Assembly (NCBI RefSeq): GCF_000012285.1
Contig: NC_007181.1
Location: forward strand, 270,001-302,000
Source: Sulfolobus acidocaldarius DSM 639
Lineage (GTDB): Archaea; Thermoproteota; Thermoprotei_A; Sulfolobales; Sulfolobaceae
Reading direction: 5' to 3'
DNA length: 32,000 nt
Positions 8,371 through 28,470 of the stretch are shown piece after piece. Made by a program: the position numbers and the translations under genes. How positions within the stretch are numbered: position 1 is the first letter of the stretch; every line of letters begins with the position of its first letter. The notes under the pieces were generated by a model. It worked only from the letters and a program-made list of their open reading frames with translations. It had not been told where the DNA came from and ran no database searches.

Positions 8371-9282
8371 TTACATGTATCTCTTTAACACTGACATAGG
8401 GTTAGTTATATTAGCTACTAATAGGGTTTCCTCAGGGCTATGACCAAAGGCAAAAGCTAGGAGTTGTGAAAAGTAGGCTAAAGGCATTTCTAAATCTTTT
8501 CCATACTTTTCAGCAATCTTTCTCATATTTGTCTCAATGGCTACATGACCCAATGGACAATCGGTAACTAAAACCTCTGCACCATTCCTTCTAGCCTCCT
8601 TTAATATTCTAGCCTCAAGGTGCATAGCCACCTCTACGTCGGAATATACATGTGGACCTCCACAACACATAGTCTTAGCTTCAAATGGAACAACTTCAGC
8701 GCCTATAGCCTTAAGTATCTCGTCCATAAAGAATGGTCTCTCCGGGTCGTCCTTCAGTGGAGCCATACCCGTGAGTAAGTATTGCTTGGGTCTCGAATAT
8801 AGGCATCCATAATATGGAGCAACCTTCAGTCCTGTCAATGGTCTCTTGACCTTCGCCTTGACTCCCTCTATTCCTACAGTATTATATACGTATTCAACTG
8901 CGTGAATTAACATAAGTTTAAGATCATACTTGACCGTACCCATCTTCTCTAAATAATTATTAGCCTTCTCTCTGACCTTAGGATATTTTGACATGTAGTA
9001 TTGAGCCCTTGATAGGGAGTAGTGACAGCCCGGACAGGCAGAAACTACTGCGTCTGCACCCATCTCTCTAGCTAAAGAGAGATTTCTAGCAGGTAATAAT
9101 AGACCAGCCATAGTGTTTACATTCTTTACCTCCAAAGCTCCACAACAATTGTAGTCCTCAATTCTGTCTAAAGGTATTCCTAGATCTTGTGCCACTAACT
9201 TAAGTGAAACCTCATATGTCTTTCCTAAACCGTCTAATGCACAACCTGGGTAAAAGGCTATTTTACCATATGGATTACTCAT
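8371..9282 (-). CDS. hdrB2: sulfur-oxidising heterodisulfide reductase-like subunit HdrB2
   Basis: 303 aa with two CCG-type Cys-rich domains (FYPGC...YNCCGA and YYGC...TMCCGGPH). An ATGA overlap (9279-9282) joins it to hdrC2. Confidence 0.9.
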
Positions 9283-9971
9283 TCAGGAACCACCTCCTCT
9301 TTCATTGCTTCCTCTAATACCTCCTTGATTTTATCCCAATTTTTCACTCTATTGGGTTTTAGGACATCACCGACTAGTTTACCTTTCAACATTGCAGCAC
9401 CAATCGATATTAAGTCCTTTATACCTAAGGTAACCATTCCTGCTTTCGATGCAGCCATTCCCAATGTTAACTCTGATATCCTACCTCCATTTCTCATAAC
9501 TGTCTCCAGGAAGAGTTCATCAAATATAGTTCCAGGATCCTTTTTAACTAAGTTATGCTTTAAGAAGTAATTATGTATCGAGTGAACGACCTCTTCTACC
9601 ATGACTCCTTTAGGACATCTATGGGTACATTTTTGACATGAGACACATCTCCATAGCGAATCCTGTAGTTGGATCAAAGCTTGCTTGTCCCCTTTTCTCG
9701 CTAAATCAATAAACTTCCTCGGTCCAAAATCTGGGTCGTATTCTCTCATAGTACAACCGGAAGTGCATGTACCACATTGCCAACAAGCACTTATTGTCAC
9801 TCCCTCTAAGGTATTTGCAACTTCGTCCCATATACTGGGGTCATAGCCAGTCTGAGTTGTTTCTACCATAAATGCATTCCATGTTCCGTCTACCTCCACT
9901 CCGTCAACTATTACTTTCTCTTTTTGAATAACTCCCTTTACTATAGGTTTTTCAGATTCAGGAATTGGCAA
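9279..9971 (-). CDS. hdrC2: heterodisulfide reductase-like subunit HdrC2 (2x[4Fe-4S])
   Basis: 230 aa with two ferredoxin-type motifs, [11 protein letters not shown] and [12 protein letters not shown]. It sits between the hyp gene and hdrB2. Confidence 0.9.
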
Positions 9972-10641
9972 CTTTTATCACCTTAAGAAAGGATTTTAAC
10001 CCTAAAACCATAGCTGTAGTAGAGAGATGAGGAGGATAGAGACCTCCTCCCTTTCTATCCACAGCTAAAAGGGTTGCATAATCAACATAACGCACGTATG
10101 CATATACCAAAAAAATAGAAGTTGAAAAATAATTATTAGTGTCCAGACCGAAAACTGATAAGATCTCTCTAAGCTCCTTCAGAGCCTCAAAATAATCATC
10201 CTTACTGTTAAGCTTTACATTGTCCATTAGTACATATGTAATTGAACCTGTGTTCTTCTTATCATTCCAGATCCACCTAGTCCATAAAGGATATTGTTCA
10301 GGCTCCAAGAAATGAATTATCTCCCTAGCCATATCCAATATATCCTCAGGTTCTTCACTTACCAGGGAGGAAAACAGCTTTAACCTCTCTGAGTAATCTA
10401 AACTTGTATCTTTCAATTTATTGTAAGCTTCCCTTATTCTACCTATTCCATTCTTTTCCAAAACATAATTAAAGTGTTTCCTAGCATAAAACACACTATC
10501 GAATAATTGTCTAACATCGTGCTCAGAATTTATGTTCAGTGATCTAAGGAACTTGGTCTTCTCCTCCATAGCCATTATTATCGCTTTTAACGATTCTTTC
10601 GGATTTAATTTTGCGGTGTTTGTAACCTCCTTGGCTAACAT
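9958..10641 (-). CDS. conserved hypothetical protein of hdr-like clusters (hyp)
   Basis: 227 aa with no recognisable cofactor motif. It occupies the position between hdrA and hdrC2 that a conserved hypothetical gene holds in described sHdr clusters. It overlaps hdrC2 by 14 nt. Confidence 0.65.
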
Positions 10642-10684
10642 ACCATTGTATATATCTCTAACGTAATCTACGCTCAGTAACTTG

Positions 10685-11782
10685 CTAATGATGTATCACC
10701 TGTTGCATCTTACCAAAATTAGACTCCTCCCAAACACCACTGGTAACATATTGATATGCCTTTAAAGCTGCTGCATAGCCCTCAGTTATTGAGTCCGATA
10801 TCCCCTTAGGTCCTGTTATTGCTCCAGCTAAGAATACACCTTTTCTCGTGGACTGTACGGGCAACCTGTCGGGATCAAGAGGTTTCACAAAACCGTGTTC
10901 CTCTAGCTCGAGACCAAGAACTTTAGCTACTTGCTTGGATCCTAAACCTAACTCCATTCCGTTAGCTAATATAACCATATCATATGGTACAACTAATGCC
11001 CTGTTCAAATTCATTGTATCTTCTCCCTTTATTATTACGGTATCATTAGGACCTCTCATGAATTCAGAAATCCTACCTCTTATGAACCCAACCCTGTAAT
11101 CCAATTGTGCCTTCCAATACAGCTTATCCTCCATAAGTCCATATGTCCTTATATCCATGTAATAGATGTGGACAATTGCATCAGGTATTCTCTGCTTTAT
11201 CTCCATTGCCTGTTTAATTGATATTGCACAACAGACTCTCGAGCAGTAAGTATTCCCAACAGTAGCATCTCTGGAACCAACACATAATAATATTGCTACT
11301 CTTTTTGGAGGTGTACCTTTTGTAGTGACCAGTTTGTTCTCGTGGAGCATACCCTCTATATCAGATATCTGGTATATGTTGGGAATCAATCCATACCCAT
11401 ACTCGTACTTCCTCCTAGAGTCAAAATGCTCAAACCCTGAGGCGGCTATTATTGCATTAACCTTCTCGGTCTTTAGGTTTCCCTTCTTATCCTTTATACC
11501 AACCTCGAATCCATCAGAAACGTTTTTCATATTCTCAATTATACTCTCTGTTAGAACTCTTACATTACCATTCTCTTCTACACTTTTCACTAGAGGGTCA
11601 AGAACCTCAGATGCAGGTCTTAATTCAGGAAATAGAAGACTGTATTTCAACTTTTTAGGCGTACCGCCGAGATAGGACTCCCTCTCCACTAATATTAAAT
11701 CAACTCCCATTCTACTTAATTCCTTAGCTGCTGAGAGACCCGCTGGTCCTGCTCCAACAACCAGAACCGATTTATTCACCAT
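10685..11782 (-). CDS. hdrA: heterodisulfide reductase-like flavoprotein HdrA (short sHdrA type)
   Basis: 365 aa. It has the FAD dinucleotide fold VLVVGAGPAGLSAA and the HdrA Fe-S signature LCVGSRD...YCSRVCC. Confidence 0.9.
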   Translation of the reverse strand: MVNKSVLVVGAGPAGLSAAKELSRMGVDLILVERESYLGGTPKKLKYSLLFPELRPASEVLDPLVKSVEENGNVRVLTESIIENMKNVSDGFEVGIKDKKGNLKTEKVNAIIAASGFEHFDSRRKYEYGYGLIPNIYQISDIEGMLHENKLVTTKGTPPKRVAILLCVGSRDATVGNTYCSRVCCAISIKQAMEIKQRIPDAIVHIYYMDIRTYGLMEDKLYWKAQLDYRVGFIRGRISEFMRGPNDTVIIKGEDTMNLNRALVVPYDMVILANGMELGLGSKQVAKVLGLELEEHGFVKPLDPDRLPVQSTRKGVFLAGAITGPKGISDSITEGYAAALKAYQYVTSGVWEESNFGKMQQVIHH

Positions 11783-11836: not shown

Positions 11837-13153
11837 TTACTTTTGCTGGGACTTATACCATTTAACTCTATCAGGCAGTGTCAGATAGAAGTCAATTTTT
11901 CTATGTTTTGGATATAGGTATTGGGTTTCTTCCTTTCCTTCCCTTAAATCGTGTAAGTACTGCAGGAACTTCTCTTTGTGGTCATCAACTGGTACACCTA
12001 TTTTCCTCAAAAATCCCTCCACGTCCGTTGCATGCCAATGTATCTGGGCAATAGTATAGGGATCAGCTCCCATAGCAAGAGCGACAAACTGCGCATCTGC
12101 TAATACTGGTAAATTATAATTGACTCCATGTGCCTTACCTACCCACTGACTCTTATCTAAAGTTGTCACACATCCTGTATCAGAGGTTACGAAGACATCT
12201 GCATGACCCTCCTCTACAGCAGGTATAACTTTCTTGAATAAAGCAAAGCTTCTGGTAAACTCCCTTTCAGTCAAAATATGTCTGAAACCAAATCCACAGC
12301 AATCCCACCACGTAGAATAATCTACTAATTTGGCACCTAGATTCTTTACTGTGCCTGAAGGAGCTGCAGGTCTTCTTCCCTGGTAAACTTCAGGGTCATA
12401 TATTGTATCCTCTGGTACTAACTTGTAGATATGGCATGGTGTGTGGACAGCAGCCTTGACTCCCTCTAGGTTATATTTCTTTTGCTGTGCAGCTTTCTTG
12501 CTCATAACATACATCCATTCTGAGTAGTGGACTACTTCCTCTGGTACAACTATATCCATGTCTAGTTTTCTCATTATTGGTCTCAGTTTCTCCCTTATTT
12601 CACTGTGTAGTATTATCATGTTCCTCATTTCCTTATAGTGCCCAAACGAGGTACCACAATGTATTAGAGGGAAATAGTCTGTTTCATAAGCCCTCCACAT
12701 ATTTCTAACATAAACACCTGCTAATGCGACAGGATTAGACGCACCAGATGCGTGATAGTTCCAACCTGTACATGAAGTCTGATGAGGTTCGTCTAAATAA
12801 TCAATCTCAAGTTTATTCATGATCCAAAAGACTGAGGTCGGGTAACCAGGGATATGACCACACTGACCACAGCTTTTATGATGCCATAACTTTGTTGTCG
12901 GAATCTTTTTAGGAAGACCATTTAAGGACTGATATTCTACAGGGTTATACATGGGTTTAACGTGATGGACTAGTATCTCACCCTTATCCTCCAGCTTATA
13001 TAACTCCTCCTTAACGTGCTGGAGACCATGAGGTGTACTGTACTTGTAAATTATCCTCTGATAGACATCCTCCCAATCCACCTGGTCAGCCATAGGAAAT
13101 GCTTCCTTTATAGCCTCGTCAAGCTTCTTCTCCTGCTCTTTATTCATACTCAT
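11837..13153 (-). CDS. hdrB1: heterodisulfide reductase-like subunit HdrB1
   Basis: 438 aa. It is Cys-rich, with CGQCGH and the CCG-type motif WWDCCGFGFRH. It is the first gene of the hdrB1-A-hyp-C2-B2 operon and has a palindromic TATA-like box about 24 nt upstream. Confidence 0.85.
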   Translation of the reverse strand: MSMNKEQEKKLDEAIKEAFPMADQVDWEDVYQRIIYKYSTPHGLQHVKEELYKLEDKGEILVHHVKPMYNPVEYQSLNGLPKKIPTTKLWHHKSCGQCGHIPGYPTSVFWIMNKLEIDYLDEPHQTSCTGWNYHASGASNPVALAGVYVRNMWRAYETDYFPLIHCGTSFGHYKEMRNMIILHSEIREKLRPIMRKLDMDIVVPEEVVHYSEWMYVMSKKAAQQKKYNLEGVKAAVHTPCHIYKLVPEDTIYDPEVYQGRRPAAPSGTVKNLGAKLVDYSTWWDCCGFGFRHILTEREFTRSFALFKKVIPAVEEGHADVFVTSDTGCVTTLDKSQWVGKAHGVNYNLPVLADAQFVALAMGADPYTIAQIHWHATDVEGFLRKIGVPVDDHKEKFLQYLHDLREGKEETQYLYPKHRKIDFYLTLPDRVKWYKSQQK

Positions 13154-13170
13154 ATTTGAGACACCTTTGT

Positions 13171-13658: not shown

Positions 13659-13669
13659 GTGACCCAAAG

Positions 13670-13903
13670 GTGAGCAGTCTGAGAATATACAAAGAACTAG
13701 ACTTAACCAGTTCCTCATGTGCAGGACCAATTGGTGAACTCTCAGGTGTGATAGATGAGCTTCAAGATGGTGAAGCTGTTAAAGTAATATTGGGAGATGA
13801 GGCGACAAAAAAAGACATAACATTATGGGCGAAGAGAAGGGGAGTTAAGATAGTAAAAGAAGAACAGGAAGGGAGTAAGCACATATTATTCATAACTAAA
13901 TGA
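13670..13903 (+). CDS. TusA-like sulfur carrier paralogue with variant active-site motif (CAGP instead of CPxP)
   Basis: 77 aa with a GTG start. It aligns along its length with the canonical TusA in this window (LDLTSSSCAGPIGEL vs LDARGMYCPGPVLET; DITLWAKRRG vs DIEAWARRTG). Confidence 0.6.
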   Translation: MSSLRIYKELDLTSSSCAGPIGELSGVIDELQDGEAVKVILGDEATKKDITLWAKRRGVKIVKEEQEGSKHILFITK

Positions 13904-13915: not shown

Positions 13916-15073
13916 TTGGCTAAAAGGATAATTGTAGCAGGAGGAAATATAGGAGGCACAATAATAGCAAATAGGCTAGCCCAAAAATTAGACCATGAAC
14001 TTCATAAAGGAGAAGTGGAAATTGTAGTTCTAAACAAGAACGACGATCATATTTACTACCCCGGACAATTGTTATTAGCCTATGGTCTTGAGACTCCACC
14101 AGAATTAATGAAAAAAGAAAGCGAGCTACTGGACCATAGAATTAAGTTTATACACGGTGAGAAAGGGACTATAACAAAATTTGACCCAGCGAACCACTCT
14201 GTAGTAACTGCAGATGGTGTTTCACACAGTTACGACTACTTAGTGATAACAACCGGAGTAGAGTACAGTTGGGATGAGATACCAGGCTATAGGGCTGGAT
14301 CAGTTAACTTTTATGAATATGAAGATGCCCTGAAGATGAGAGAAGCACTAAACAATTTCCAGGGAGGAACAATCGTAGTTAATACAGCAAGATTACCCCA
14401 CAGATGCCCTGTTGCACCCTTAGAGAACACATTAGTCCTTGATGATTACTTAAGAAAGAGGGGAATAAGGGACAAGACTAAAATTATTTACACATACCCA
14501 GTTCAGGGAGTGTTTGGAAGACCAATAACTAACAAATTCATGCTAAAGTTATTTGAAGAGAGAGGTATTGAAGTGCATTCACCATTCACTGTAACAAATG
14601 TAAACCCAACTGAGAAGATAATTGAGTCTCAAGAAGGAGGTAAGCTGAAGTACGATCTGCTAATTGCAATTCCACCAAATATGGGAGCAAAAGTCGTAGG
14701 AGATTCAGGATTGGGTGACAGGAGGAGATGGCTACCAACTGATAAGTTCACCCTGAGAATGAAAGACCATTCTAATGTATATGTAATGGGAGATGCTACC
14801 GATTTACCCGTATCTAAGGCAGGCTCCACTGCAGACTTTGAATCTTATGTCGTATCCCATAACATAGCGAACGACATTAAAGGTAATTTAGGTATGAAGC
14901 ACTACGGAGGAGATGTACTCTGTTATATAGCAACTGGAACTGATCAAGCAACCTACATTAGGTTTAGTTATACCATGAACGAGAGTCCTCCACCCCCATC
15001 CTACATCCACTGGTGGGGGAAGATAATGTACAATAAATTATACTGGACTGTAACAGCCAAGGCAGTGGTATAA
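13916..15073 (+). CDS. sulfide:quinone oxidoreductase-like FAD-dependent pyridine nucleotide-disulfide oxidoreductase
   Basis: 385 aa with a TTG start 7 nt after a perfect GAGGTGAT Shine-Dalgarno site. The N-terminal FAD fold is [15 protein letters not shown]. Cys residues sit in SQR-like contexts ([22 protein letters not shown]). Confidence 0.7.
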
Positions 15074-15074
15074 A

Positions 15075-15455
15075 ATGAAACTAGGGATAATAGTGGGTAC
15101 TAATGAGAGATCAAGGTTAACATATGCAGCAATGAACTCTGTAATATCCTCATCTATGGGAGACGAAGTATTCGTATTCTTGACAATGGATTCAGTAAGG
15201 GCTTTCACAAAAAACCCTGAAGTTAAAGACTCAGATGTTTCATCAAAAACAATGGTTGAAAAGAAAGATGAGGACTTTACAGGGCTCTTCAAAAAGGCAA
15301 AGAAGAGCGGAAAGGTGAAGATTTATGCTTGCTCTTACGCCAGCAAGCTGTTTAACTATAGTAAAGCAGATTACAATGACCTTGTAGACGAAATAGCGGG
15401 AATAACTACGTTCATGATGGATGTAGAAGGGGGACAAGTTATCTCAGTGTGGTGA
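15075..15455 (+). CDS. DsrE3-like DsrE/DsrF-family sulfurtransferase paralogue
   Basis: 126 aa and colinear with DsrE3A in this window (KLGIIVGTNE.. vs KLSIIVFSGT..; KIYACSYASKLF vs KVYACSTTMEFF; C-terminus DVEGGQVISVW vs RAEGGITLFI). The Cys is conserved. It starts 1 nt after the SQR-like stop. Confidence 0.65.
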   Translation: MKLGIIVGTNERSRLTYAAMNSVISSSMGDEVFVFLTMDSVRAFTKNPEVKDSDVSSKTMVEKKDEDFTGLFKKAKKSGKVKIYACSYASKLFNYSKADYNDLVDEIAGITTFMMDVEGGQVISVW

Positions 15456-15460
15456 AGGTA

Positions 15461-21258: not shown

Positions 21259-22092
21259 TTAGTGATTAAAACCTTTAAGAATTACACTTCGCAAGTCTAT
21301 TAAGTCTCCCTCTTCCATCGCTGTTGACGAAAAGAACCTAATATAGGGGAATCCTCCGTAAGATAGTACCACCTCCATGAACGCTTTCCCACAGATTGGT
21401 TTATTTTCCAAAACCTTGAATGACGAATCAAATTCCCAATTTCTTATAAGTCCTCTTTTACCCTCAAAAATAGCGTAATTCTTCCTTTTCCTGTAAATTT
21501 TACCTAGATGTATACCGAAAAGCGATATTGGTTCTTTATAACCACCTATAAGACCACCGTAACAAGCATATGGAATACTGGCATTAAGCAGACCGCCACA
21601 GCATCCCAATCCTCTAAATTTTCCTGCCTGGGCATAATCCTCTATCATAACGTCAAAATAATCTCTAGTCTTAACCTTTATAATTCCTCTTAATGACTCC
21701 CTATACATACTTATTTTAGGGAATGAAATTCTAACGCCCTCGATATGAGCATGAGGAAAATCTCCTCCTGTGTAGGGTGTTAGAATAAATTCGCCTAAAG
21801 GTTGACCCTCTTTCACATATTCTCCCTTTTCTGTGAAGGGTCTTACGTGAAGGATTTTAACCATGTTACCATTGCTTTGCCTTATAAGTATCACGTAATC
21901 ATAGTCCACTTCAGCAAACCTGTTTGGTCTTCCAACTCTAATTTTCTCTGTATCTATCACTTCTCCTTCCACAGGAGAGTAGAAGGTGTGAAAATCTGGA
22001 GAAGAGACATCAATAGCTTTGGCTCTCACATGGGATGGAAAACCGCTAGAGAAAAAACTGACTAGTGAACCAGTAGGAATATACATGGACAT
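21259..22092 (-). CDS. M23/LytM-like (duplicated hybrid motif) domain protein with uncharacterised Cys-rich C-terminal domain
   Basis: 277 aa. The N-terminus reads HVRAKAIDVSSPDFHTFYSPVEGEVID ... KILHVRPFTEKGEYVKEGQPLGEF ... FPHAHIEG, which parallels the M23 pattern H..D / aP.dG.V / H...V.vG..V..Gq.iG / HLHFE. The C-terminal half contains GLGCCGGLLNASIPYACYGG. Its start codon directly abuts the stop of the upstream radical-SAM gene (TAGATG). Confidence 0.5.
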   Translation of the reverse strand: MSMYIPTGSLVSFFSSGFPSHVRAKAIDVSSPDFHTFYSPVEGEVIDTEKIRVGRPNRFAEVDYDYVILIRQSNGNMVKILHVRPFTEKGEYVKEGQPLGEFILTPYTGGDFPHAHIEGVRISFPKISMYRESLRGIIKVKTRDYFDVMIEDYAQAGKFRGLGCCGGLLNASIPYACYGGLIGGYKEPISLFGIHLGKIYRKRKNYAIFEGKRGLIRNWEFDSSFKVLENKPICGKAFMEVVLSYGGFPYIRFFSSTAMEEGDLIDLRSVILKGFNH

Positions 22093-23148
22093 CTAATTCA
22101 ACAATTTTTTGATTAGGACCTCTAGCTTACTCTGTTTTATTGCCTTTCTAGTGACTTCAAGGTCAGGATATAGTGGAATATTCTTCAGTACACCACCAGG
22201 TCTTTCATTTGAGTAAGGTCTGTTACAACCTGGACAACCACTGGTCATAAATGCGGGAGCTAACTCCTCAACAGTGAGATCACTAGGAATTTCTATATCC
22301 ACTAGCTTACCTTCCTCATTAAATTTAAATGAGTCATATTTCACTAAATCATTCTCTATAAGCCATCTGGAAACTTGCATCCTTCGATAAACGTCTATTG
22401 GTACTGGTTTTCTCTTTTCCATAGGAGTACCACTTTCAGGATAAAATGCGAACAGTGATATTTTGGCTCCTCTGGAATGGGCGTACCACATAAGATGTAT
22501 AGCATCCCTTTCAGTTTCTCCTAAACCTACAATCAAGTGAATACCAGCGTTCTTCTTGCCAAAAACCTCTACAGCCTCATCTATTGCCTGAATGTATCTA
22601 TCCCATGAATGCATGCTCCTAACCAGTTTCCCCCTAACCTGGTCAAAAAGTTCCTTATTAGCTGCATCAATTGCCACATCTATCATATTAGCTCCAGCCC
22701 TCTTCATTTCAATCATATGCCTCTTATACGTATAAGTTGCTGTAACTAGTTCTGATATCTGTAATTCTATTCCAGCCTCTCTAATTCTCCTTGTAATCTC
22801 TATGGCATCAGGAGAAGCTCTAGGATGAGCCAACTGACCTACACATATTCTTTGAAGACCGTATCTAATGTCGCCTTGTCTATCCTTTATTCTCTTGATG
22901 ACCTCATCTAAAGGTCTCAAAGGCCATTCTACCCTTATCAATGTCTTACACTCTGGACCCTGTGCGACCTCCCTTGCTTGTCCACAGTAAGAGCAATTTG
23001 CCTTACAACCGTCTGGATAGTATTGGAGTAGGTTAATGGTTGTATTTAGAACGTTGTTAAAAAATACTCCCGGAGAGAATCCTAGGACTATGTCTGCACC
23101 GAAGCTTAATCTCACCCAATCAGGACTTGAAACTAAACGAAGAGTCAT
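22093..23148 (-). CDS. BioB-like radical SAM protein, LipS1/LipS2-type lipoyl synthase component
   Basis: The radical-SAM motif is CKANCSYCGQA, with the BioB-like LIVGLGETERD and C-terminal Cys SGCPGCN. The preferred start is the ATG at 23148 (MTLRLVSS...), which forms an ATGA overlap with the upstream gene; the track ORF extends to 23190. I cannot tell LipS1 from LipS2 by eye. Confidence 0.8.
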   Translation of the reverse strand: MTLRLVSSPDWVRLSFGADIVLGFSPGVFFNNVLNTTINLLQYYPDGCKANCSYCGQAREVAQGPECKTLIRVEWPLRPLDEVIKRIKDRQGDIRYGLQRICVGQLAHPRASPDAIEITRRIREAGIELQISELVTATYTYKRHMIEMKRAGANMIDVAIDAANKELFDQVRGKLVRSMHSWDRYIQAIDEAVEVFGKKNAGIHLIVGLGETERDAIHLMWYAHSRGAKISLFAFYPESGTPMEKRKPVPIDVYRRMQVSRWLIENDLVKYDSFKFNEEGKLVDIEIPSDLTVEELAPAFMTSGCPGCNRPYSNERPGGVLKNIPLYPDLEVTRKAIKQSKLEVLIKKLLN

Positions 23149-24050
23149 GAAACACCACCTGAAATTATATCGAGAACAACATTTCCGCAACAGGCATTAC
23201 TAAGAAAAACTTTTCTCTTTGACATTGCATACTCATATGTTTCCTCCTCAGGGAATGCGATTGCATCTATATCGTAGTCCACAGCAAACGTCTCCACCTT
23301 TACATAATCTTTACCTCGCGGTCGTGCACAGCCCAGGTTTATAGGTATATTACTAAATGTATCCCTAGCAAATCTTAGGGCAGTAATGAGTTCCTCAGGA
23401 GATGGCTGGTTTCCATTGTACATGGGTGTCCCAAGTAATGGCATTAACCCAACAATAATTATGGCGTCCGGTTCAACCTCTTTTAGTAATCTTATAGCCT
23501 CTAAATCACCTTTGATACCTTTTGTACTTAGACCAACTATGACATGAGGCACTATCTTAATTCCAGCCTGTTTAAGATATTTAAAGGAGTTCAGATAATC
23601 GTCTACCGTAAATGGTTGCCTCAGAACTTCTTTAATAGTTGTGTTATCTGAGACCATATCAAGTAAAGCCACCTTAACACCAGCTTCCTTGAGCTTAACT
23701 GCTATATCTTGGCTCCTTACCACCCCGGTATGGGCTATGATTGTAAGCTTATCCGCGTACTTGGAAATAACGTGTCCGTATTTCCATAAAGGAACGTCTC
23801 CTCTGATCGTAGAGCCACCTGAGAGTATTATCCCCTTATCTCCTGCCTTAACAGCTCTTTCTAGTTCCCTTGTGAGCTTCTCTTCACTAGACCCATCTAT
23901 CATAGTCTCTAAAACCCTTCTACCACAATGTTTACAATTAAAGGCACAATATTTACCTGTGACAGAAATGGACTTCCATCCATTACTAGAAGAGATAAAA
24001 TCAGTCTCATACCTTTTCAAATTAGGAGCGTAAATAAACAGTGGTCTCAT
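23145..24050 (-). CDS. radical SAM protein, LipS1/LipS2-type lipoyl synthase component
   Basis: The radical-SAM motif is CAFNCKHCGRR, with extra Cys at NLGCARP and SNACCGN. The preferred start is the ATG at 24050 (MRPLFIYAP...), which forms an ATGA overlap with the ligase gene stop; the track ORF extends to 24122. Confidence 0.8.
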   Translation of the reverse strand: MRPLFIYAPNLKRYETDFISSSNGWKSISVTGKYCAFNCKHCGRRVLETMIDGSSEEKLTRELERAVKAGDKGIILSGGSTIRGDVPLWKYGHVISKYADKLTIIAHTGVVRSQDIAVKLKEAGVKVALLDMVSDNTTIKEVLRQPFTVDDYLNSFKYLKQAGIKIVPHVIVGLSTKGIKGDLEAIRLLKEVEPDAIIIVGLMPLLGTPMYNGNQPSPEELITALRFARDTFSNIPINLGCARPRGKDYVKVETFAVDYDIDAIAFPEEETYEYAMSKRKVFLSNACCGNVVLDIISGGVS

Positions 24051-25081
24051 TTTAACGCCTCCTTCATTAAGTTTATTAGATCTTCTTGCGTAATCCCCAA
24101 TATCTTTACATTCTTGTACCATTCCTTGATCTCATTATCTATATCCTCTACTCTACTCCATTTCAGCCTTGCCTCTAAGTCATAGATTGCAGTCCTAGGT
24201 TCCACAAAGAAGTCTCCTGTAATAAGCACAGACTGAATTAGATTCTCTCCAGCCAATTTAATCTGCACTTTTACTAGACCTCCAGGGAGCTTCCTTTCTA
24301 AATACCTAATGTTGTCACCCTCTAACGGCTTTCTCATACCGAATATCCACTCAGGGGATGAGTACTTCCTAGCCAACCTATTTATGGTCTCAGTTTCTTC
24401 CTTATGGTAAGTAGATTCTTTTAACTCAACTCCCAAGGCTTCAGAAAATCCCTCCTTGGCTATTTTTATTAAGTCCACCATATCTATACTAGAAGTTAAC
24501 TCCTTGTTAATCCATGTTAATCTGTCCTTAAAGTCCTTAGACAGTTTATCCTTTAATTTCTCAGATGTCAACTTAAGCACTGATACCATTGCATCGACAT
24601 CAAAGTCTAAGAGAATTGTACCAGTGACACCCATATATCTTCCCTCCGAGAATGCACCTATCCCAGATATTTTTCTCCCTTTAATTTCTACATCATTTTT
24701 TGGTCTGAAATTTGCACTTATACCTAATTTTCCCAGTGTCCTTATTACACCCTCTGCACCTAGTCTCATGGCATTATCTGGAGTCTCTCCCAGGAGACTT
24801 TTGTCTGCATAAATTTCCCATCCTAATTGCCACGGTCCCATTATTATAGTCCCGCCTCCTGTGGGTCTCCTACCAACATCCCAATTCTTACGGCGCACTT
24901 CCTCTAGATTTACCTCCTGCTCAACTGTTTGATGATATCCTATTAGGACAGCTGGAGGGTCAAATATGACGAACCTGAGCACAGGACTACTTCCAGAGGC
25001 TACAGATAACAGAAGTGCTTCCTCGCCTGCAAGAATATAGTCTTGACTATTTCTTTCGACAATAAATCTGAATTCTCTCAT
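24047..25081 (-). CDS. lipoate-protein ligase, fused LplA+LplB type (sLpl(AB)-like)
   Basis: 344 aa. LplA-family motifs are RRPTGGGTIIMGP and GRKISGIGAF (catalytic Lys context), followed by a C-terminal accessory domain in the same polypeptide. It is the first gene of the operon with the two radical-SAM genes. Confidence 0.85.
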   Translation of the reverse strand: MREFRFIVERNSQDYILAGEEALLLSVASGSSPVLRFVIFDPPAVLIGYHQTVEQEVNLEEVRRKNWDVGRRPTGGGTIIMGPWQLGWEIYADKSLLGETPDNAMRLGAEGVIRTLGKLGISANFRPKNDVEIKGRKISGIGAFSEGRYMGVTGTILLDFDVDAMVSVLKLTSEKLKDKLSKDFKDRLTWINKELTSSIDMVDLIKIAKEGFSEALGVELKESTYHKEETETINRLARKYSSPEWIFGMRKPLEGDNIRYLERKLPGGLVKVQIKLAGENLIQSVLITGDFFVEPRTAIYDLEARLKWSRVEDIDNEIKEWYKNVKILGITQEDLINLMKEALK

Positions 25082-25432: not shown

Positions 25433-25783
25433 TCAGTACCATAAACCCCTCTTCATACTATCTAACTTGGTATATAGAGCTATCTGGAGGTATCTAAATA
25501 CCTCAATTGTAAATTTAACTGCAGTGTCTTCATCATAGGAATTTAATTTAGAAATGAGCTCTGTTATCATCCTACTCATATCGTTCATAGTGGTCTTCTC
25601 CATATCGTATTGGTTCAACTGAAGAATCTCGAGTATTTCGCTTTTAGTCTTAGCCTGTTTTAGCCTTTGATATATCTTGATTACGACTCCCTCTTTCTCT
25701 TTTCCAAAAAGAGCATCTTGAGGATTCCTGAGCCATCTAGCATAGGTAGCTGCTAACCTCTTTGCCTCATTCTCTATGGACAT
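25433..25783 (-). CDS. hypothetical protein
   Basis: 116-aa ORF, predicted helical, with no recognisable motif. It lies 19 nt downstream of the 164-aa ORF on the same strand. Confidence 0.4.
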   Translation of the reverse strand: MSIENEAKRLAATYARWLRNPQDALFGKEKEGVVIKIYQRLKQAKTKSEILEILQLNQYDMEKTTMNDMSRMITELISKLNSYDEDTAVKFTIEVFRYLQIALYTKLDSMKRGLWY

Positions 25784-25802: not shown

Positions 25803-26297
25803 TTAAATAAAAATTTTCAATCTCTTCAACGAGCCTAGTGCGCTTAGCAGGTCATTTGACATAATAAAAGGGGAATATTTAGAGCAATCATAGTATCTGT
25901 TCACACAAACTACTTTTATCCTTGAATCAAAAAACCTGGCTGAAAGTAAATCTAGGGGCGAAGAACCAATCATAACGACGTCTAAGGGATCCCATTCAGT
26001 TATTTTAAATAAGATCTCAAAAGGCTCCTTCGAAGGCTTCGTTTTTCCAGTATTCGAAACTACATACAATGGGCTTACATTTATCCTCTTAAGCAATTCA
26101 TCTGTTGTGACAGAATCGTAGGGGGATAAAACTGCAAGCTTGTCCTTAACTTGTTCGTACAATGTATGCCAGTCCTCATAAACCTCATAAGTTATAGGTA
26201 AGCTCATAGTACGTTCTCCCTTGTAGACTTTGTATAGGTGATCTGTTAGGTCGATCTTCAGTATTACGCCGTCTAACCAAACTGCAAAATGTACCAT
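25803..26297 (-). CDS. hypothetical protein, weak HAD-like resemblance with nucleophile Asp missing
   Basis: 164 aa. The N-terminal FAVWLDGVIL compares with HAD motif I (FDxDGTL), with the first Asp replaced. The later VVMIGSSPLDLLSA compares with the GDSxxD motif. It is divergent from lbpA across only 39 bp. Confidence 0.35.
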   Translation of the reverse strand: MVHFAVWLDGVILKIDLTDHLYKVYKGERTMSLPITYEVYEDWHTLYEQVKDKLAVLSPYDSVTTDELLKRINVSPLYVVSNTGKTKPSKEPFEILFKITEWDPLDVVMIGSSPLDLLSARFFDSRIKVVCVNRYYDCSKYSPFIMSNDLLSALGSLKRLKIFI

Positions 26298-26336
26298 AGC
26301 TAGGTTTATAAATTATTTTTATGATTTAAAAAGTGT

Positions 26337-26777
26337 ATGAAAATTTCATTTTTCAATTTCCCAGACGATCTATTGTATGAACCTGAGAGACATGTGTGGA
26401 TTAAGGTCGAGGAAAATAAGGTTGTAAGTGTGGGCATGACCGATCTAGGGCAGTACCTTGCAGGAAAGATATTCCAAGTGTCTGTCCCTAGAAGGGTAGG
26501 AGAAAGGGTCAACAATAGAACCATACTGTTCTCAGTAGAAAGTGCAAAGTGGATAGGAAAAATAAGATTGCAAATAGAAGGTGAGGTGGTAGATATTAAT
26601 GAACGGGTTATAAAAAACCCATCAATAATTAATGAAGATCCATATGGAAGTTGGATTATTAAAGTCTCAGTTACTGACGTAGATCTTGTTAAGAGAGCAT
26701 TTAAGAACATACAAGATTGTAGAAGCCAATTTGAGGAGGAAGCAAATAGGATTGTGTCATGGAAAAATAGTTCCTGA
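26337..26777 (+). CDS. lbpA: GcvH-like lipoate-binding protein LbpA (copy 1)
   Basis: 146 aa with a GcvH fold signature: VGMTDLGQ, the lipoyl-Lys context VESAKWIG (Lys71, codon 26547-26549), EGEVVDINE and EDPYGSWIIKV. Confidence 0.85.
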   Translation: MKISFFNFPDDLLYEPERHVWIKVEENKVVSVGMTDLGQYLAGKIFQVSVPRRVGERVNNRTILFSVESAKWIGKIRLQIEGEVVDINERVIKNPSIINEDPYGSWIIKVSVTDVDLVKRAFKNIQDCRSQFEEEANRIVSWKNSS

Positions 26778-26890
26778 AGAGAGTCCTCAGAGTCCATTTA
26801 GTTTAGCTGGTAGAATACAGATTTATGTTGATGCAGATAATATAATAAAATAAAAAAGCCATTCATATTTTCTTTAAGGTAAATTTTATT

Positions 26891-26902
26891 TATTTAAATT
26901 TA
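26891..26902 (+). promoter_or_regulatory. TATA-like box for second lbpA
   Basis: The sequence tatttaaattta is centred about 27 nt upstream of the ATG at 26924, which suggests lbpA copy 2 has its own leaderless promoter. Confidence 0.35.
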
Positions 26903-26923
26903 GAGATATAGTATAGACCTATT

Positions 26924-27373
26924 ATGGTAGTAGAAGCTAATTGTGAAATCCCAGAAAACCTATACTATTATATTGATGGAAAGAACACAGTGTGGGTGAA
27001 AATAGAGGGAAGTGATATTGCGGTAGTTGGTATAACGGATTTAGCACAAACCATGGCAGGGAAAATTGTGAAGATAAGGATAAAGAAGAAAGGTATAAAA
27101 GTAGAGAGGGGAAGACCTGTAGCAACTCTAGAGAGCGGGAAATGGGCTGGACCAGTGCCTGCACCAGTTTCCGGTGAGGTAGTGGATTCCAACTCAGAAG
27201 TTGAAAAAAGCCCTGTGATCTTAAACAGAGATCCTTATGGTCAAGGATGGATCGCAAAGATTAAAATTAGTAACCAGGAGGAAGTTAAGCAATTATTAAC
27301 AGGACAGCAAGCTATACAAAAACTCAAGGAGATTATAACCTCAGAGAAATTAACATGTAAGAGGCTACAGTAA
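26924..27373 (+). CDS. lbpA: GcvH-like lipoate-binding protein LbpA (copy 2)
   Basis: 149 aa with VGITDLAQ, the lipoyl-Lys context LESGKWAGPVPAPVSGEVV (Lys73, codon 27140-27142) and RDPYGQGWIAKI. Its stop overlaps the start of the next ligase gene by 1 nt (TAATG). Confidence 0.9.
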   Translation: MVVEANCEIPENLYYYIDGKNTVWVKIEGSDIAVVGITDLAQTMAGKIVKIRIKKKGIKVERGRPVATLESGKWAGPVPAPVSGEVVDSNSEVEKSPVILNRDPYGQGWIAKIKISNQEEVKQLLTGQQAIQKLKEIITSEKLTCKRLQ

Positions 27374-28470
27374 TGGGAGACTGGAGATATGTCTCCTTAC
27401 CTCCCCAAGACGGCTATCATATGATAACTTCGTTTGTTGCTGTAGCAGATTACGTTAACAAGAACGGGAAAAATACCTTAATGACGTTCTATGCCAGGAC
27501 TCCATTCATCAACGTCGGTGTACATCAAGAGGTCTGGTTGGAAGTAGATCTTGAATGTGCTAAGCAGAATAACATTACTGTTGTGAGAAGAGACATAGGT
27601 GGCGGAACAGTGGTAATTACCCCAGGTGAGCATGATTATTTTATAGTAGTTAGAGCTGAAGAAGTTCCAAGAAATCCCTCTCAGTTATACGAGAAATTCT
27701 TAACACCAGTGGTTAACGTCCTGAAATCCTATGGTCTTAACGCAAACTTAAGGGATCAGGATATAGTAGTAAACGGAAAGAAAATAAGTGGTAATGGTGC
27801 ATCAACGTTTGGCAACGCAGTGGTCATAACGGGAAATATCCTTTTTCAGTTAGATGTTGATACTATGACAAGGTGCATAAAAGTACCCTCAGAGAAGTTC
27901 AGAGATAAAATGGCAAAGGACATAAGGGATTGGTTAACGTCCCTAGAGAGAGAGTTAGGATATGTGCCACCAAGGGAGGAAATTGAGAAGAAGTTGAAGG
28001 ATGAATTTGAGAGGTCATTAGGCATAAAATTTGAGGACTCAAGGTTGACTAGGGAAGAGATCGAATTGTGGGAATCGTTAGCTAAAGAAAAAGCTAATGA
28101 GGAGTGGATCTACTATAAGGACAATAGACATCCTGATTTACATTCAGAGAGGTGTGTTAAGATCTCCTCATCAGTTGCAATTTGTCACATTGATTATAAA
28201 GCCAGAAAATTGTTAAGGATAACAATGAGAATAGTGGAAAAAAAGGTTGATGAGATATCTATATCAGGAGACTTCTTTGTCATGAATCCTAAGAACTTTC
28301 TAGAGAAACTAGAGGAGAGCCTTAGAGGAGTAGAGGTTAATAATATTAACAGTGTGGTGCGGAGAATATTTGAAACTGAAAAGCCTGTTATATTTGGATT
28401 TTCAGAAAATGATTTAATCAATGCTATACAGGAGATACTCAATAAACCTGAAGTTCAAGAAGTCATTTAG
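27373..28470 (+). CDS. second lipoate-protein ligase paralogue (fused LplA+LplB type)
   Basis: 365 aa with LplA-family motifs RRDIGGGTVVITPG and GKKISGNGAS plus a C-terminal accessory domain. It is translationally coupled to lbpA copy 2. Confidence 0.8.
   Translation: MGDWRYVSLPPQDGYHMITSFVAVADYVNKNGKNTLMTFYARTPFINVGVHQEVWLEVDLECAKQNNITVVRRDIGGGTVVITPGEHDYFIVVRAEEVPRNPSQLYEKFLTPVVNVLKSYGLNANLRDQDIVVNGKKISGNGASTFGNAVVITGNILFQLDVDTMTRCIKVPSEKFRDKMAKDIRDWLTSLERELGYVPPREEIEKKLKDEFERSLGIKFEDSRLTREEIELWESLAKEKANEEWIYYKDNRHPDLHSERCVKISSSVAICHIDYKARKLLRITMRIVEKKVDEISISGDFFVMNPKNFLEKLEESLRGVEVNNINSVVRRIFETEKPVIFGFSENDLINAIQEILNKPEVQEVI

Follow-up and report, generated by a model that had tools for sequence, protein, structure and literature searches.

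Why should a 20-kb region of the Sulfolobus acidocaldarius chromosome (positions 8371-28470 of the window, the whole 32-kb stretch of DNA analysed) bring together genes for Hdr-like sulfur oxidation, sulfur carriers, and lipoate-binding and lipoate-making proteins? The region extends from the stop codon of hdrB2 (8371) to that of the second LplA gene (28470), and its gene families were assigned by profile searches against Pfam and NCBIfam. All the gene classes named in an earlier, sequence-only reading (hdr, tusA, dsrE, GcvH-like, LplA, and radical-SAM) were found where that reading had placed them, and, in agreement with it, gcvT/gcvP, E2, lipA/lipB, sox, dsrAB, and mvh were all not found in the window. 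The locus is very probably the S. acidocaldarius copy of the type I sHdr-LbpA sulfur-oxidising pathway, arranged in the scattered 'Group II' fashion that is typical of Sulfolobaceae; Cao et al. (2018, PMC6067878) described this layout, of which Liu et al. (2014, PMC4175335) had given the first outline. As had been anticipated, the main finding is already known: this is a published Hdr-like sulfur-oxidation system, covered by these two papers and by Tanabe et al. (2023, PMC10332631; 2024, PMC11094781). The genes have not come together by chance, since their synteny is shared by 12 related Sulfolobaceae loci; the synteny comparison proposed earlier showed it to hold for core and accessory genes in Metallosphaera, Saccharolobus, Stygiolobus, Aramenus, Acidianus, and MAGs.

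The hdr genes all lie on the minus strand. The sHdrB2 protein (8371..9282, 303 aa) has two CC motifs and two CCG domains (Pfam, 1.9e-26, two stretches), and in NCBIfam it scores best against the methanogen HdrB (167 bits, cut-off 345). The sHdrC2 protein (9279..9971, 230 aa) contains a 4Fe-4S dicluster domain (Pfam Fer4_8/9/7) with eight cysteines in two ferredoxin motifs CxxCxxCxxxC. For the conserved 'hyp' protein, sHdrH (9958..10641, 227 aa), no family was found in Pfam or NCBIfam, and its gene is kept at the same position in 12 of 12 related loci (44-59% identity). The flavoprotein sHdrA (10685..11782, 365 aa), with an FAD motif and four cysteines for one [4Fe-4S] cluster, aligns from end to end with the Hyphomicrobium denitrificans sHdrA (6TJR; 1.5e-75), whereas its alignment with the 650-aa methanogen HdrA is limited to residues ~100-344; the N-terminal, inserted-ferredoxin, and C-terminal domains of the latter are missing, and the score against the methanogen HdrA models of NCBIfam is 247 bits (cut-off 1100). 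The sHdrB1 protein (11837..13153, 438 aa; Pfam CCG, 2.7e-7; 119 bits to the NCBIfam HdrB, cut-off 450) is 81-88% identical to its orthologues in related loci, and sHdrC1 (16554..17405, 283 aa), a protein with a 4Fe-4S dicluster domain, Pfam Fer4 families, and two CxxCxxCxxxC motifs (75 bits to the NCBIfam HdrC, cut-off 270), shows 80-86% identity in 10 genomes. Methanogen equivalog scores of 57-247 bits against cut-offs of 160-1400 set the Hdr-like proteins apart from methanogen HdrABC. The Hdr subunits, as well as LipS1, LipS2, and the dihydrolipoamide dehydrogenase (DLD)-like protein considered below, fall short of the curated NCBIfam cut-offs and are subfamily-level matches and not equivalogs. 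The proposal that many parts occur as paralogue pairs holds for the sHdr subunits (B1/B2 and C1/C2), but the second TusA and DsrE4 belong to a separate mobile module of four genes.

The sulfur relay is encoded next to hdrC1. TusA (17471..17713, minus strand, 80 aa; Pfam TusA, 8e-27) carries Cys18 in a CPGP motif, and DsrE3A (18292..18693, plus strand, 133 aa; Pfam DsrE family) carries the C-X7-C motif Cys93-X7-Cys101. The residue numbers of these catalytic cysteines are those of the characterised Metallosphaera cuprina proteins, in which Cys18 of TusA is essential (PMC4175335). DsrE3A matches SSO1125 (PDB 3MC3, 5.6e-78), and DsrE2B (17725..18156, minus strand, 143 aa; Pfam DsrE family) matches S. 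solfataricus SSO1126 (PDB 2QS7, 1e-86), which Liu et al. (2014, PMC4175335) named DsrE3A and DsrE2B, respectively. Rather than the two DsrE3-like genes counted earlier, the locus holds three DsrE-family genes, encoding DsrE3A, DsrE2B, and DsrE4.

In the predicted pathway, DsrE3A (Cys93/Cys101) and TusA (Cys18) would take up thiosulfonate or sulfane sulfur, with transfer from DsrE3A to TusA, both steps being established in M. cuprina. By homology and bacterial genetics, the TusA-bound sulfur would then reach a cytoplasmic iron-sulfur flavoprotein complex, sHdrAA'B1B2C1C2, which together with lipoylated LbpA would oxidise it to sulfite. The DLD-like enzyme encoded beside dsrE3A presumably re-oxidises dihydrolipoyl-LbpA and reduces NAD+. 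Experiments in Thermococcus kodakarensis and in bacteria suggest that the fused Lpl(AB) ligases attach octanoate or lipoate to both LbpA proteins, whose maturation would be completed by LipS1/LipS2 through insertion of two sulfurs. The tusA/SQR-like/dsrE4/DUF1641 module between hdrB1 and hdrC1 may oxidise sulfide or carrier-bound sulfane sulfur, and its electrons would enter the quinone pool. Finally, the sulfite product may be exported by a TauE/SafE-type exporter (7460..8311, minus strand; Pfam TauE, 2e-48), whose gene lies 59 nt 3' of hdrB2 on the same strand, just outside 8371-28470; TauE after hdrB2 was not found in the related loci that extend that far.

Induction on sulfur, an expectation of the sequence-only reading, has been published: of all sulfur genes, those for HDR alone were up-regulated in each of the four Sulfolobaceae examined, among them S. 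acidocaldarius MW001, where elemental sulfur raised their expression (PMC11323534). However, S. acidocaldarius is a heterotroph that has served as a non-oxidising chassis without sor, tqo, or a canonical sqr, to which others added sor, tqo, and sqr so as to engineer sulfur oxidation (PMC11323534); the same parts may therefore serve detoxification or homeostasis of reactive sulfane sulfur and tetrathionate in this organism, and not dissimilatory, energy-conserving oxidation. The conserved neighbours of the locus, which include OsmC and thioredoxin-like genes, agree with such a protective role. On the other hand, the strong lithotrophs Metallosphaera and Acidianus keep the same gene set at 75-88% identity, and the induction of the HDR genes by sulfur (PMC11323534) also speaks for oxidation. 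Detoxification and electron harvesting can, moreover, coexist, and we consider the exclusively protective role a real possibility, albeit not the probable one.

LbpA_a (26337..26777, plus strand, 146 aa; Pfam GCV_H, 3e-28; one Cys) and LbpA_b (26924..27373, plus strand, 149 aa; GCV_H, 7.3e-42) carry the lipoyl-lysine in ESAKW and ESGKW, respectively, a common ES-x-K-W context, and the lipoyl-lysine of LbpA_b aligns with that of the Thermus and pea H-proteins. Fused lipoate:protein ligases Lpl(AB), each with the Pfam domains LplA-B_cat and Lip_prot_lig_C, are encoded by copy a (24047..25081, minus strand; LplA-B_cat 1e-38; NCBIfam LplB domain at residues 263-343), which shares an operon with lipS1/lipS2, and by copy b (27373..28470, plus strand; 2e-36), the start of which overlaps the LbpA_b stop. 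The BioB-like radical-SAM genes had been taken for LipS-type genes, and the best NCBIfam matches agree, ~200 bits above BioB: LipS2 for 22093..23190 (minus strand; CKANCSYC motif, Pfam Radical_SAM; 2.4e-71, 241 bits, cut-off 270; 44 bits to BioB), and LipS1 for 23145..24122 (minus strand; CAFNCKHC motif, Pfam Radical_SAM; 8.4e-59, 199 bits, cut-off 230).

These genes could instead encode glycine-cleavage H proteins and a general lipoylation machinery that merely lie near hdr. Both LbpA proteins bear the annotation glycine cleavage H protein (LbpA_a is 100% identical to the protein annotated as S. acidocaldarius GcvH), their top PDB matches are all H-proteins, with canonical GcvH as the best solved relatives at about 40% identity, and, according to the literature, LipA or LipS1/S2 is usually the sole lipoyl synthase of an archaeon. 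Sequence alone does not separate LbpA from canonical GcvH, and the deep LbpA/GcvH nodes were likewise unresolved in Cao et al. (2018, PMC6067878). Nevertheless, LbpA_b has an N-terminal Cys7 and a C-terminal Cys145, consistent with the terminal cysteines that Cao et al. (PMC6067878) reported for LbpA and not for GcvH. The gene context is shdr/lplA/lipS and never gcvPT, with gcvT/gcvP not found within the 32 kb, and the LbpA_b-LplA_b pair is kept just 3' of hdrB2 in two relatives (loci L006 and L009), directly so in L009. In addition, homologues of LbpA_a were found in Sulfolobaceae only, and the two lipoate-binding genes were lost at the point where the sulfur-inhibited Sulfodiicoccus lineage branched off (PMC11323534). 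A general lipoylation role is thus unlikely.

The idea that a methanogen-type heterodisulfide reductase forms an electron-bifurcating complex with the formate-dehydrogenase-like enzyme encoded 3 kb upstream of the range, i.e. 3 kb from hdrB2 (978 aa), draws on this proximity and on best-named NCBIfam matches to CoB-CoM heterodisulfide reductase subunits, but is effectively refuted by Hdr scores far under every equivalog cut-off, by the sHdr-like architecture of HdrA, and by the formate dehydrogenase itself, which is ForC-type (1181 bits to Bacillus subtilis YjgC), comes with a ForE-like DUF1641 partner and an FdhD of its own, is set off from hdr by toxin-antitoxin genes, and shows no synteny with hdr in relatives; with mvhADG not found in the window, methanogen-type Hdr partners are absent, as had been stated.

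Several genes of the range (type III SQR-like, DUF1641, DLD-like, and thioredoxin-like) had been left unnamed. The DLD-like flavoprotein (18700..20034, plus strand, 444 aa; Pfam Pyr_redox_2 and Pyr_redox_dim) has a CVNYGC redox disulfide and lipoamide_DH as its best NCBIfam match (282 bits, cut-off 409), and its gene adjoins dsrE3A in 10 related loci. Between it and a thioredoxin or protein-disulfide-oxidoreductase-like gene (20359..20910, plus strand, 183 aa; CTKC; Pfam Thioredoxin_17, 1.9e-41, and Thioredoxin_3) lies a conserved hypothetical gene (20000..20362, plus strand, 113-120 aa) that corresponds to Mcup_0679 (PMC4175335) and had no family match in Pfam or NCBIfam; both are syntenic in 11 related loci. 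A small PIN-like neighbour (20876..21247, minus strand, 123 aa; weak Pfam PIN_5 match, 8e-4) is syntenic in 10. Near LbpA_a, a hypothetical protein for which profile searches found no family (25433..25783, minus strand, 116 aa) has orthologues in four loci, and a HAD-like hydrolase gene (25803..26297, minus strand, 164 aa; weak Pfam HAD_2 match, 2.7e-4) is divergent from LbpA_a, the pair being kept in three loci.

Two unexplained gene sets inside the locus look worth following up: DUF8155 in the lipoate operon and the SQR/DUF1641 cassette. DUF8155 (21259..22092, minus strand, 277 aa; precomputed PF26482) is, according to its AF2 model (pLDDT 94.8), predicted to be an M23-fold protein: Foldseek matches to the model are LECT2, SpoIIQ, LytM, and LasA, and an N-terminal M23/LytM-like domain with conserved His/Asp precedes a C-terminal beta domain that carries an invariant-like GCCGG. 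It occurs in Sulfolobaceae and uncultured archaea, and in seven loci its gene follows lplA-lipS1-lipS2 as a conserved fourth member of the operon.

The second tusA gene is part of a distinct conserved module, tusA/type III SQR-like/dsrE4/DUF1641, which here separates hdrC1 from hdrB1, whereas these two genes adjoin in 12 related loci. All four genes lie on the plus strand. This TusA (13670..13903, 77 aa; Pfam TusA, 9.9e-16), whose Cys17 stands in a CAGP context, has orthologues immediately 5' of the SQR-like gene in five loci. The SQR-like flavoprotein (13916..15073, 385 aa; 345 bits to the NCBIfam SQR_III, cut-off 525) has redox cysteines C164 and C336 and an invariant C-terminal tail; its best PDB match is human SQOR (1e-30), with both catalytic cysteines aligned. 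DsrE4 (15075..15455, 126 aa; Cys86; Pfam DsrE, 1.2e-10) is encoded 3' of the SQR gene, the position that defines the DsrE4 group in Liu et al. (2014, PMC4175335). The DUF1641 protein (15449..16381, 310 aa; Pfam DUF1641, 1.1e-15 at residues 265-303), whose gene contains the DNA repeat D1, consists of three ~73-aa helical repeats and a C-terminal DUF1641 head domain, and is 50% identical to a cassette-type orthologue vs 22-24% to a paralogue of the hdr-cluster type. The SQR-like tail type and the presence of a downstream DUF1641 gene correspond exactly (31/31 loci against 0/24), which points to an Ndh-Ncp-like quinone-conduit complex.

Open reading frames taken from a six-frame listing of the whole window were scanned against Pfam and NCBIfam. 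The scans recovered a continuous set of sHdr, TusA, DsrE, GcvH-like, LplA and LipS genes, and the supercluster that the sequence-only reading had placed at 8371-28470 is real, its limits being exactly the stop codons of hdrB2 and of the second lipoate ligase gene. Rfam and tRNA scans found no RNA genes in the window. On the minus strand, hdrB2 (8371-9282, two CCG motifs), hdrC2 (9279-9971, two CxxCxxCxxxC motifs), a 227-aa gene without a family match (hyp, 9958-10641), hdrA (10685-11782, 365 aa, four Cys) and hdrB1 (11837-13153) form the unbroken order B1-A-hyp-C2-B2, from which hdrC1 (16554-17405, also minus strand, two CxxCxxCxxxC motifs) is displaced by 3.4 kb. With the conserved hypothetical gene counted as H, all six of sHdrA, B1, B2, C1, C2 and H are present according to Pfam and NCBIfam. 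Neither an HdrB3 fusion nor etfAB-emo lies within the cluster; since etfAB-emo is absent and C2 and B2 are separate genes, the Hdr of the window is, as judged from its sequence, a type I sHdr in the terms of Tanabe 2024 (PMC11094781).

A methanogen-type Hdr, working with the formate dehydrogenase encoded nearby, has to be weighed against this assignment, as the HdrABC-MvhAGD and HdrABC-FdhAB systems of methanogens share with the window a core of CCG-domain HdrB, ferredoxin-like HdrC and HdrA with FAD and [4Fe-4S]. Unlike those systems, the window has an HdrA of half the size and duplicated HdrB and HdrC, and Pfam and NCBIfam scans of the window detected no mvh genes; Mvh or F420-Fdh partners of Hdr are lacking. 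The proteins score far under the cut-offs of the NCBIfam methanogen equivalogs: 247 bits vs 1100 for HdrA, 167 vs 345 and 119 vs 450 for HdrB, and 75 vs 270 and 57 vs 160 for HdrC. Residues 4-343 of HdrA align with residues 2-337 of its best solved relative, the sHdrA of Hyphomicrobium denitrificans (6TJR, 1.5e-75); the methanogen HdrA (~650 aa) aligns with it over residues ~100-344 only. The dehydrogenase is itself of a different kind: window 1192-5190 is a ForCE-type formate:quinone oxidoreductase operon and not a methanogen-type Hdr partner, comprising on the minus strand the genes for ForC (2254-5190, 978 aa, matching B. subtilis YjgC over its full length with 1181 bits), a ForE-like DUF1641 protein (1925-2290, 121 aa) and FdhD (1192-1959). 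The operon lies upstream in the window and is not syntenic with hdr in other loci. The sub-cut-off scores, the match of HdrA to 6TJR and the ForC type of the dehydrogenase rule out the methanogen-type alternative, as the sequence-only reading had expected, and the sHdr genes are linked with lbpA and tusA/dsrE genes within 20 kb, a linkage kept in the relatives.

The features by which the sulfur relay of Metallosphaera cuprina is recognized are all found in the window. Of the DsrE-family genes, that at 18292-18693 corresponds to S. solfataricus SSO1125 (PDB 3MC3, 5.6e-78) and that at 17725-18156 (minus strand) to SSO1126 (PDB 2QS7, 1e-86), the proteins named DsrE3A and DsrE2B, respectively, by Liu 2014 (PMC4175335). 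DsrE3A has Cys93-X7-Cys101 and adjoins dld, and DsrE2B together with TusA (17471-17713, minus strand, CPxP Cys18) lies directly upstream of hdrC1; in M. cuprina C93 and C101 of DsrE3A and C18 of TusA were the residues found to matter (Liu 2014, PMC4175335). The dsrE3A gene is divergent from dsrE2B-tusA-hdrC1 and heads a group with the dihydrolipoamide-dehydrogenase-like gene dld (18700-20034), a small hypothetical gene (hyp120, 20000-20362) and a thioredoxin-like gene (20359-20910), beyond which lies a PIN-like gene (20876-21247). A further DsrE-family gene (15075-15455, plus strand, 126 aa) begins 2 nt past an SQR-like gene and by position fits the DsrE4 group, which is defined by its place downstream of a sulfide:quinone oxidoreductase gene (Liu 2014, PMC4175335). 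An identical 126-aa protein is encoded on the 2.225-Mb chromosome CP046615.1, where the order of the genes agrees with that of the window. In place of the two DsrE3-like genes proposed earlier, the orthologues of known structure and the position after the SQR-like gene give three DsrE genes: DsrE3A, DsrE2B and DsrE4.

The two GcvH-like genes, LbpA_a (26337-26777, plus strand) and LbpA_b (26924-27373), match Pfam GCV_H with 3e-28 and 7e-42, respectively. The LbpA_b lysine aligns with the lipoyl-lysine of the Thermus and pea H-proteins, and LbpA_a carries the identical ES-x-K-W context. The best PDB relatives of both are all canonical GcvH, from which they are not separable by sequence. Two additional Cys, one close to each terminus and both lacking in GcvH, have been proposed as the LbpA criterion, from which some archaeal LbpAs are excepted, and the deep nodes for archaeal LbpA are without support (Cao 2018, PMC6067878); LbpA_b has Cys7 and Cys145, and LbpA_a has only Cys128. 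It is the context that marks both proteins as LbpA. Pfam and NCBIfam scans (GDC-P, GCV_T) found neither gcvP nor gcvT in the 32 kb, which bears out the absence noted before; LbpA_b begins a tight pair with a ligase gene that lies just downstream of hdrB2 in two related loci (L006 and L009, directly so in L009), and LbpA orthologues adjoin lplA, hdrB2 or lipS genes in L006, L009 and L015-L017. A 163-aa antisense reading frame over the whole of LbpA_a (26306-26797, minus strand) is most likely spurious, since the plus-strand GcvH-like reading has the Pfam match and is 100% identical to a protein annotated in S. acidocaldarius.

Both lipoate ligases, LplA_a (24047-25081) and LplA_b (27373-28470), are fused, with LplA-B_cat and Lip_prot_lig_C / NCBIfam LplB in one chain. 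LplA_a belongs to a minus-strand group with LipS1, LipS2 and a DUF8155 protein (21259-25081), separated from LbpA_a by a hypothetical gene (hyp116, 25433-25783) and a HAD-like gene (25803-26297). The best NCBIfam models of the radical-SAM pair, both with CxxxCxxC, are LipS2 at 241 bits and LipS1 at 199 bits; BioB reaches only 36-44 bits. Since these scores are under the curated cut-offs (LipS1 199 vs 230, LipS2 241 vs 270), the two proteins form a divergent subfamily. As in Thermococcus kodakarensis, two BioB-related radical-SAM proteins, there jointly the lipoyl synthase, adjoin a lipoate ligase; the T. kodakarensis ligase is bipartite (Lpl-N/Lpl-C), whereas that of the window is fused, and the window operon differs also in its sub-cut-off LipS proteins and its extra DUF8155 gene. 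Two related loci hold a second divergent LipS1/LipS2-like pair (L007 19253-20766 and L008 19598-20790, 23-40% identity) ~4 kb past hdrB2, which is relevant to the question of a dedicated route formed by the lipoate genes linked to hdr.

A scan with HdrC1, taking one genome per species, yielded ten Sulfolobaceae loci at 80-86% identity; further loci, from Metallosphaera, Acidianus brierleyi and Saccharolobus, came from look-ups of DUF8155 orthologues, and the window proteins were mapped onto all loci. The synteny comparison revealed a conserved block of dld-hyp-trx (with the PIN-like gene), dsrE3A, and dsrE2B-tusA-hdrC1-hdrB1-hdrA-hyp-hdrC2-hdrB2, together with three others: lplA-lipS1-lipS2-DUF8155, LbpA_a with the HAD-like gene, and LbpA_b-LplA_b with hyp149-OsmC. 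Core and accessory blocks are conserved across the Sulfolobaceae loci, so that hyp120, the thioredoxin-like and PIN-like genes, hyp116, the HAD-like gene and hyp149/OsmC belong to a conserved neighbourhood and are not random inserts. The M. cuprina version has been described, with dld (Mcup_0680), a hypothetical gene (0679), thioredoxin (0678), and H-protein-like and lipoate genes, in a report whose comparative figure takes in S. acidocaldarius (Liu 2014, PMC4175335), and in archaea that have a type I sHdr the shdr genes are often linked to tusA, dsrE3A and dsrE4 (Tanabe 2024, PMC11094781). The window agrees with M. cuprina (PMC4175335) in the genes, order and strands of dld-hyp-trx, dsrE3A and dsrE2B-tusA-hdrC1, with identical Cys numbering, and in having lplA-lipS1-lipS2-DUF8155 and LbpA with the HAD-like gene nearby. 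It differs in adding a TauE gene after hdrB2 and in the location of a tusA/SQR-like/dsrE4/DUF1641 cassette, which in M. cuprina lies elsewhere, near tqo (Mcup_1722-1724), and in the window between hdrC1 and hdrB1. Unlike the window, Metallosphaera and Saccharolobus carry Hist_deacetyl (HDAC-like) and 417-419-aa DUF1641 genes between DUF8155 and the PIN-like/trx/dld block (L015 10788-13031, L017 10776-13046); with the cassette type, the product of the latter gene shares no more than 22-24% identity.

The bacterial type I shdr-lbpA clusters of Hyphomicrobium denitrificans and Thioalkalivibrio (Cao 2018, Koch & Dahl 2018, Tanabe 2023/2024) likewise contain shdrC1B1AHC2B2, LbpA, fused sLpl(AB), LipS1/LipS2 and TusA. 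They differ in being a single operon ('Group I') with DsrE3C/Rhd442 and LipT and without a linked dld, whereas the archaeal window has several transcription units, DsrE3A/DsrE2B/DsrE4, dld-hyp-trx and DUF8155, and no LipT. Hdr type, relay Cys, lipoyl-Lys and synteny together support the earlier view of the locus as an sHdr-LbpA system of sulfur oxidation. Gene identities, synteny and the co-variation of the SQR-like tail with its DUF1641 partner are shown by the analysis. We infer that the sHdr complex of the window oxidizes protein-bound sulfane sulfur to sulfite, and in the same way all catalytic steps, the formation of the complex, the path of the electrons and what the system does for the physiology of the heterotroph S. 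acidocaldarius. In kind the system is known already, as it is in Sulfolobaceae and essentially in S. acidocaldarius; the judgement 'described rather than novel' was correct, as the pathway, the relay, the lipoate genes and the scattered Sulfolobaceae layout have been published (Liu 2014, Cao 2018, Tanabe 2024). This main finding adds nothing new, and its value is that of a well-annotated reference in a model organism. As S. acidocaldarius is genetically tractable, the substrate of sHdr and the conserved hypothetical genes are open to knock-outs, and there is the question of the electron exit, by LbpA and the DLD-like enzyme to NAD+ vs to quinone. There is some merit in the suggestion of using the locus as a template in the search for missing components, in that the comparison picks the SQR-like/DUF1641 pair and DUF8155 as candidates; of more interest than the main finding are DUF8155 and the match between the SQR-like tail and DUF1641.

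The cassette consists of plus-strand genes for TusA (13670-13903), the SQR-like flavoprotein (13916-15073), DsrE4 and a 310-aa DUF1641 protein (15449-16381). The hdrC1 and hdrB1 genes are adjacent in 12/12 related loci covering the junction, and only in this genome are they split by the cassette (window 13154-16553), 3.4 kb apart. The cassette is found again in S. tengchongensis, Sulfurisphaera and A. brierleyi, at genomic sites that are unrelated and in many cases have a rhodanese gene close by. No convincing insertion scars flank the cassette, and the short AT-rich matches around it (19 nt, 84%) are no evidence for insertion by a mobile element. AT-rich TATA-like elements can be read upstream of both hdrB1 and the cassette tusA, so that the hdr genes are split into at least two transcription units.

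The best NCBIfam match of the flavoprotein is the type III SQR model, a model of the selenoprotein subtype, at 345 bits vs a cut-off of 525; among solved structures human SQOR is the closest (1e-30), and the two catalytic Cys align. Among 26 homologues from archaea and bacteria, C164, C336 and the residues K369, Y372, N373, Y376 and W377 of the C-terminal tail are invariant. The cassette DUF1641 protein has a C-terminal DUF1641 head domain (Pfam 1.1e-15) and three tandem repeats of ~73 aa (DNA repeats at 15585, 15807 and 16026). The region before the head domain varies widely, other Sulfolobaceae orthologues being 370-374 aa and bacterial partners 119-298 aa. The DUF1641 proteins HucM, ForE and Ncp/YjlC scaffold an oxidoreductase, bind it to the membrane and carry quinone via a hydrophobic tube, and a special C-terminus is the part by which the Ndh of B. 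subtilis attaches to Ncp (2026, PMC13524794). Searching the 310-aa protein against the PDB with phmmer gave nothing significant (ForE1 E 0.13); a profile of SQR-adjacent DUF1641 proteins matched Ncp/YjlC best (3.6e-6), then ForE1 (1.3e-3) and HucM (3.3e-3).

Scanning metagenomes with the alignment of SQR-like proteins yielded 80 loci (37-67% identity), whose tails and neighbours were sorted with purpose-built HMMs, the tail counts being restricted to loci with at least 700 nt downstream. A DUF1641 gene directly follows the flavoprotein gene in 31/31 loci with the window-type tail YN[KRQ]xYW..A[RK]G (class A) and in 0/24 with the other tail, N[KR]xYWxxVPxG (class B). TusA is directly upstream in 32 of 37 class A loci, and a DsrE gene is upstream in the same number (32/37). 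The pairing is repeated in 6/6 genome contexts, including Sulfobacillus and a Conexivisphaerales MAG, and the Sulfobacillus partner, BXT84_01950, was reported to be 2.2-fold up on sulfide concentrate. Many metagenome loci run in frame from the SQR-like gene into DUF1641 across one stop, as would be expected of selenocysteine read-through; the stops, however, mix TGA, TAA and TAG and are followed within 8-22 nt by a Met start, so that these are simply tightly packed genes. That spacing between the SQR-like stop and the DUF1641 start holds in most of the 39 metagenome loci having such a gene.

The pairing of SQR-like flavoprotein and DUF1641 protein is good comparative evidence for a physical complex that would pass electrons to quinone, and the match of tail type to DUF1641 presence suggests that the DUF1641 quinone-conduit complexes include a fourth class, in sulfur metabolism. 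In such a complex, similar to Ndh-Ncp, ForCE or Huc, the DUF1641 tube would scaffold the flavoprotein and bring quinone to it, and sulfide or sulfane sulfur bound to TusA/DsrE would be oxidized away from the membrane. The location of the module inside the shdr operon in S. acidocaldarius is a hint that the sHdr relay may have an outlet to quinone; Metallosphaera and Saccharolobus have instead, within the hdr supercluster, the distinct DUF1641 gene of 417 aa. If true, the quinone-conduit principle would extend to sulfur oxidation and to archaea; Ndh-Ncp has been reported in Bacillota only (PMC13524794). Likeness to B. subtilis Ndh-Ncp (YjlD-YjlC), ForCE and Huc (PMC13524794) is confined to the cassette: a flavoprotein gene of the NDH-2/SQR superfamily stands directly upstream of the DUF1641 gene, and the class A tail, which co-varies with the partner, resembles the C-terminus by which Ndh of clade C1 binds Ncp. 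Unlike Ndh, the cassette enzyme is type III SQR-like with two redox Cys, not an NADH dehydrogenase, and it comes with TusA and DsrE; the archaeal complex is predicted from sequence, and its DUF1641 partner has 3-4 extra helical repeats.

Comparable to the cassette are an operon of Methylacidiphilum fumariolicum SolV, type III SQR-TusA-DsrE2 (PMC10205796), and the type III SQR of Caldivirga maquilingensis: there a type III SQR with the two canonical Cys is encoded together with TusA and a DsrE protein and is induced by sulfide. They differ in that the reports mention no DUF1641 partner; according to the titles of its reports (PMC3570593, PMC6944315), the Caldivirga enzyme binds membranes on its own. 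No paper on a link between DUF1641 and SQR was found in the searchable literature. In the Conexivisphaerales MAG (L019 7241-10669) the module, in the order tusA-SQR-like-dsrE-DUF1641, adjoins ATP sulfurylase and APS reductase genes, which suggests a link to sulfite oxidation via APS. With the ForCE operon and the SQR-like cassette, two different DUF1641 partner systems occur in one window.

The 277-aa DUF8155 protein encoded after lipS2 has a weak Pfam M23 match (1.3e-4). A word-index search gave 39 clusters, all named ones being from Sulfolobaceae or Sulfolobales-type archaea, and in an exhaustive profile search only four DUF8155 representatives were at or below 1e-30. An AF2 model built from the word-index alignment has a pLDDT of 94.8, and its N-terminal ~100-190 residues match the M23/LytM fold in Foldseek (LECT2, SpoIIQ, pseudoalterin, LasA and LytM); the fold occurs here in archaea without peptidoglycan. 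M23 zinc peptidases have an H..D, H and HxH pattern, which the DUF8155 residues H21, D28, H82, H114 and H116, each at least 90% conserved, resemble.

DUF8155 is the fourth gene after lplA-lipS1-lipS2 in 6/6 related genomes with the region visible (L004, L007, L008, L015, L016 and L017). In one of the four profile-search representatives, from an uncultured organism (L100), it again follows a radical-SAM gene, between two LplA genes and adjoining a GcvH-like gene. A distant relative, P0180, has no lipoate context, so that the lipoate link is limited to the closer DUF8155 subfamily. It is reasonable to suppose that DUF8155 takes part in assembling or turning over lipoate, and it may be the fourth component of the archaeal Lpl(AB)-LipS1/LipS2 operon, where it could act as an amidase or scaffold on the lipoyl- or octanoyl-lysine arm. 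No mention of DUF8155 was found in the literature. Taken jointly, we regard the SQR-like/DUF1641 pair and DUF8155 only tentatively, at somewhat less than even chances, as undescribed components.

The TauE/SafE gene (7460-8311, minus strand) follows hdrB2 on its strand at a distance of 59 nt, may be co-transcribed with it, and is absent after hdrB2 in the related Sulfolobaceae loci that extend past that gene. A sulfite exporter gene behind that of a presumed sulfite-making enzyme is suggestive. Between tauE and the ForCE operon are a 380-aa fusion of 2'-5' RNA ligase-like and metallophosphoesterase-like parts (in 5396-7333), a VapB-like gene (6696-6938) and a PIN/VapC gene (6935-7333). Downstream of the locus lie hyp149, OsmC and hyp107, the first two conserved beside LbpA_b-LplA_b in the relatives, and at the right edge (30074-31546) a regulator of 269 aa that contains two winged-helix domains of the Lrp/AsnC type, and a protein of two DUF1059 copies. 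The left edge (83-1089, plus strand) holds ETF-QO-like pieces, a weak ubiquinone-binding match followed by a Fer4_ETF_QO ferredoxin-like reading frame.
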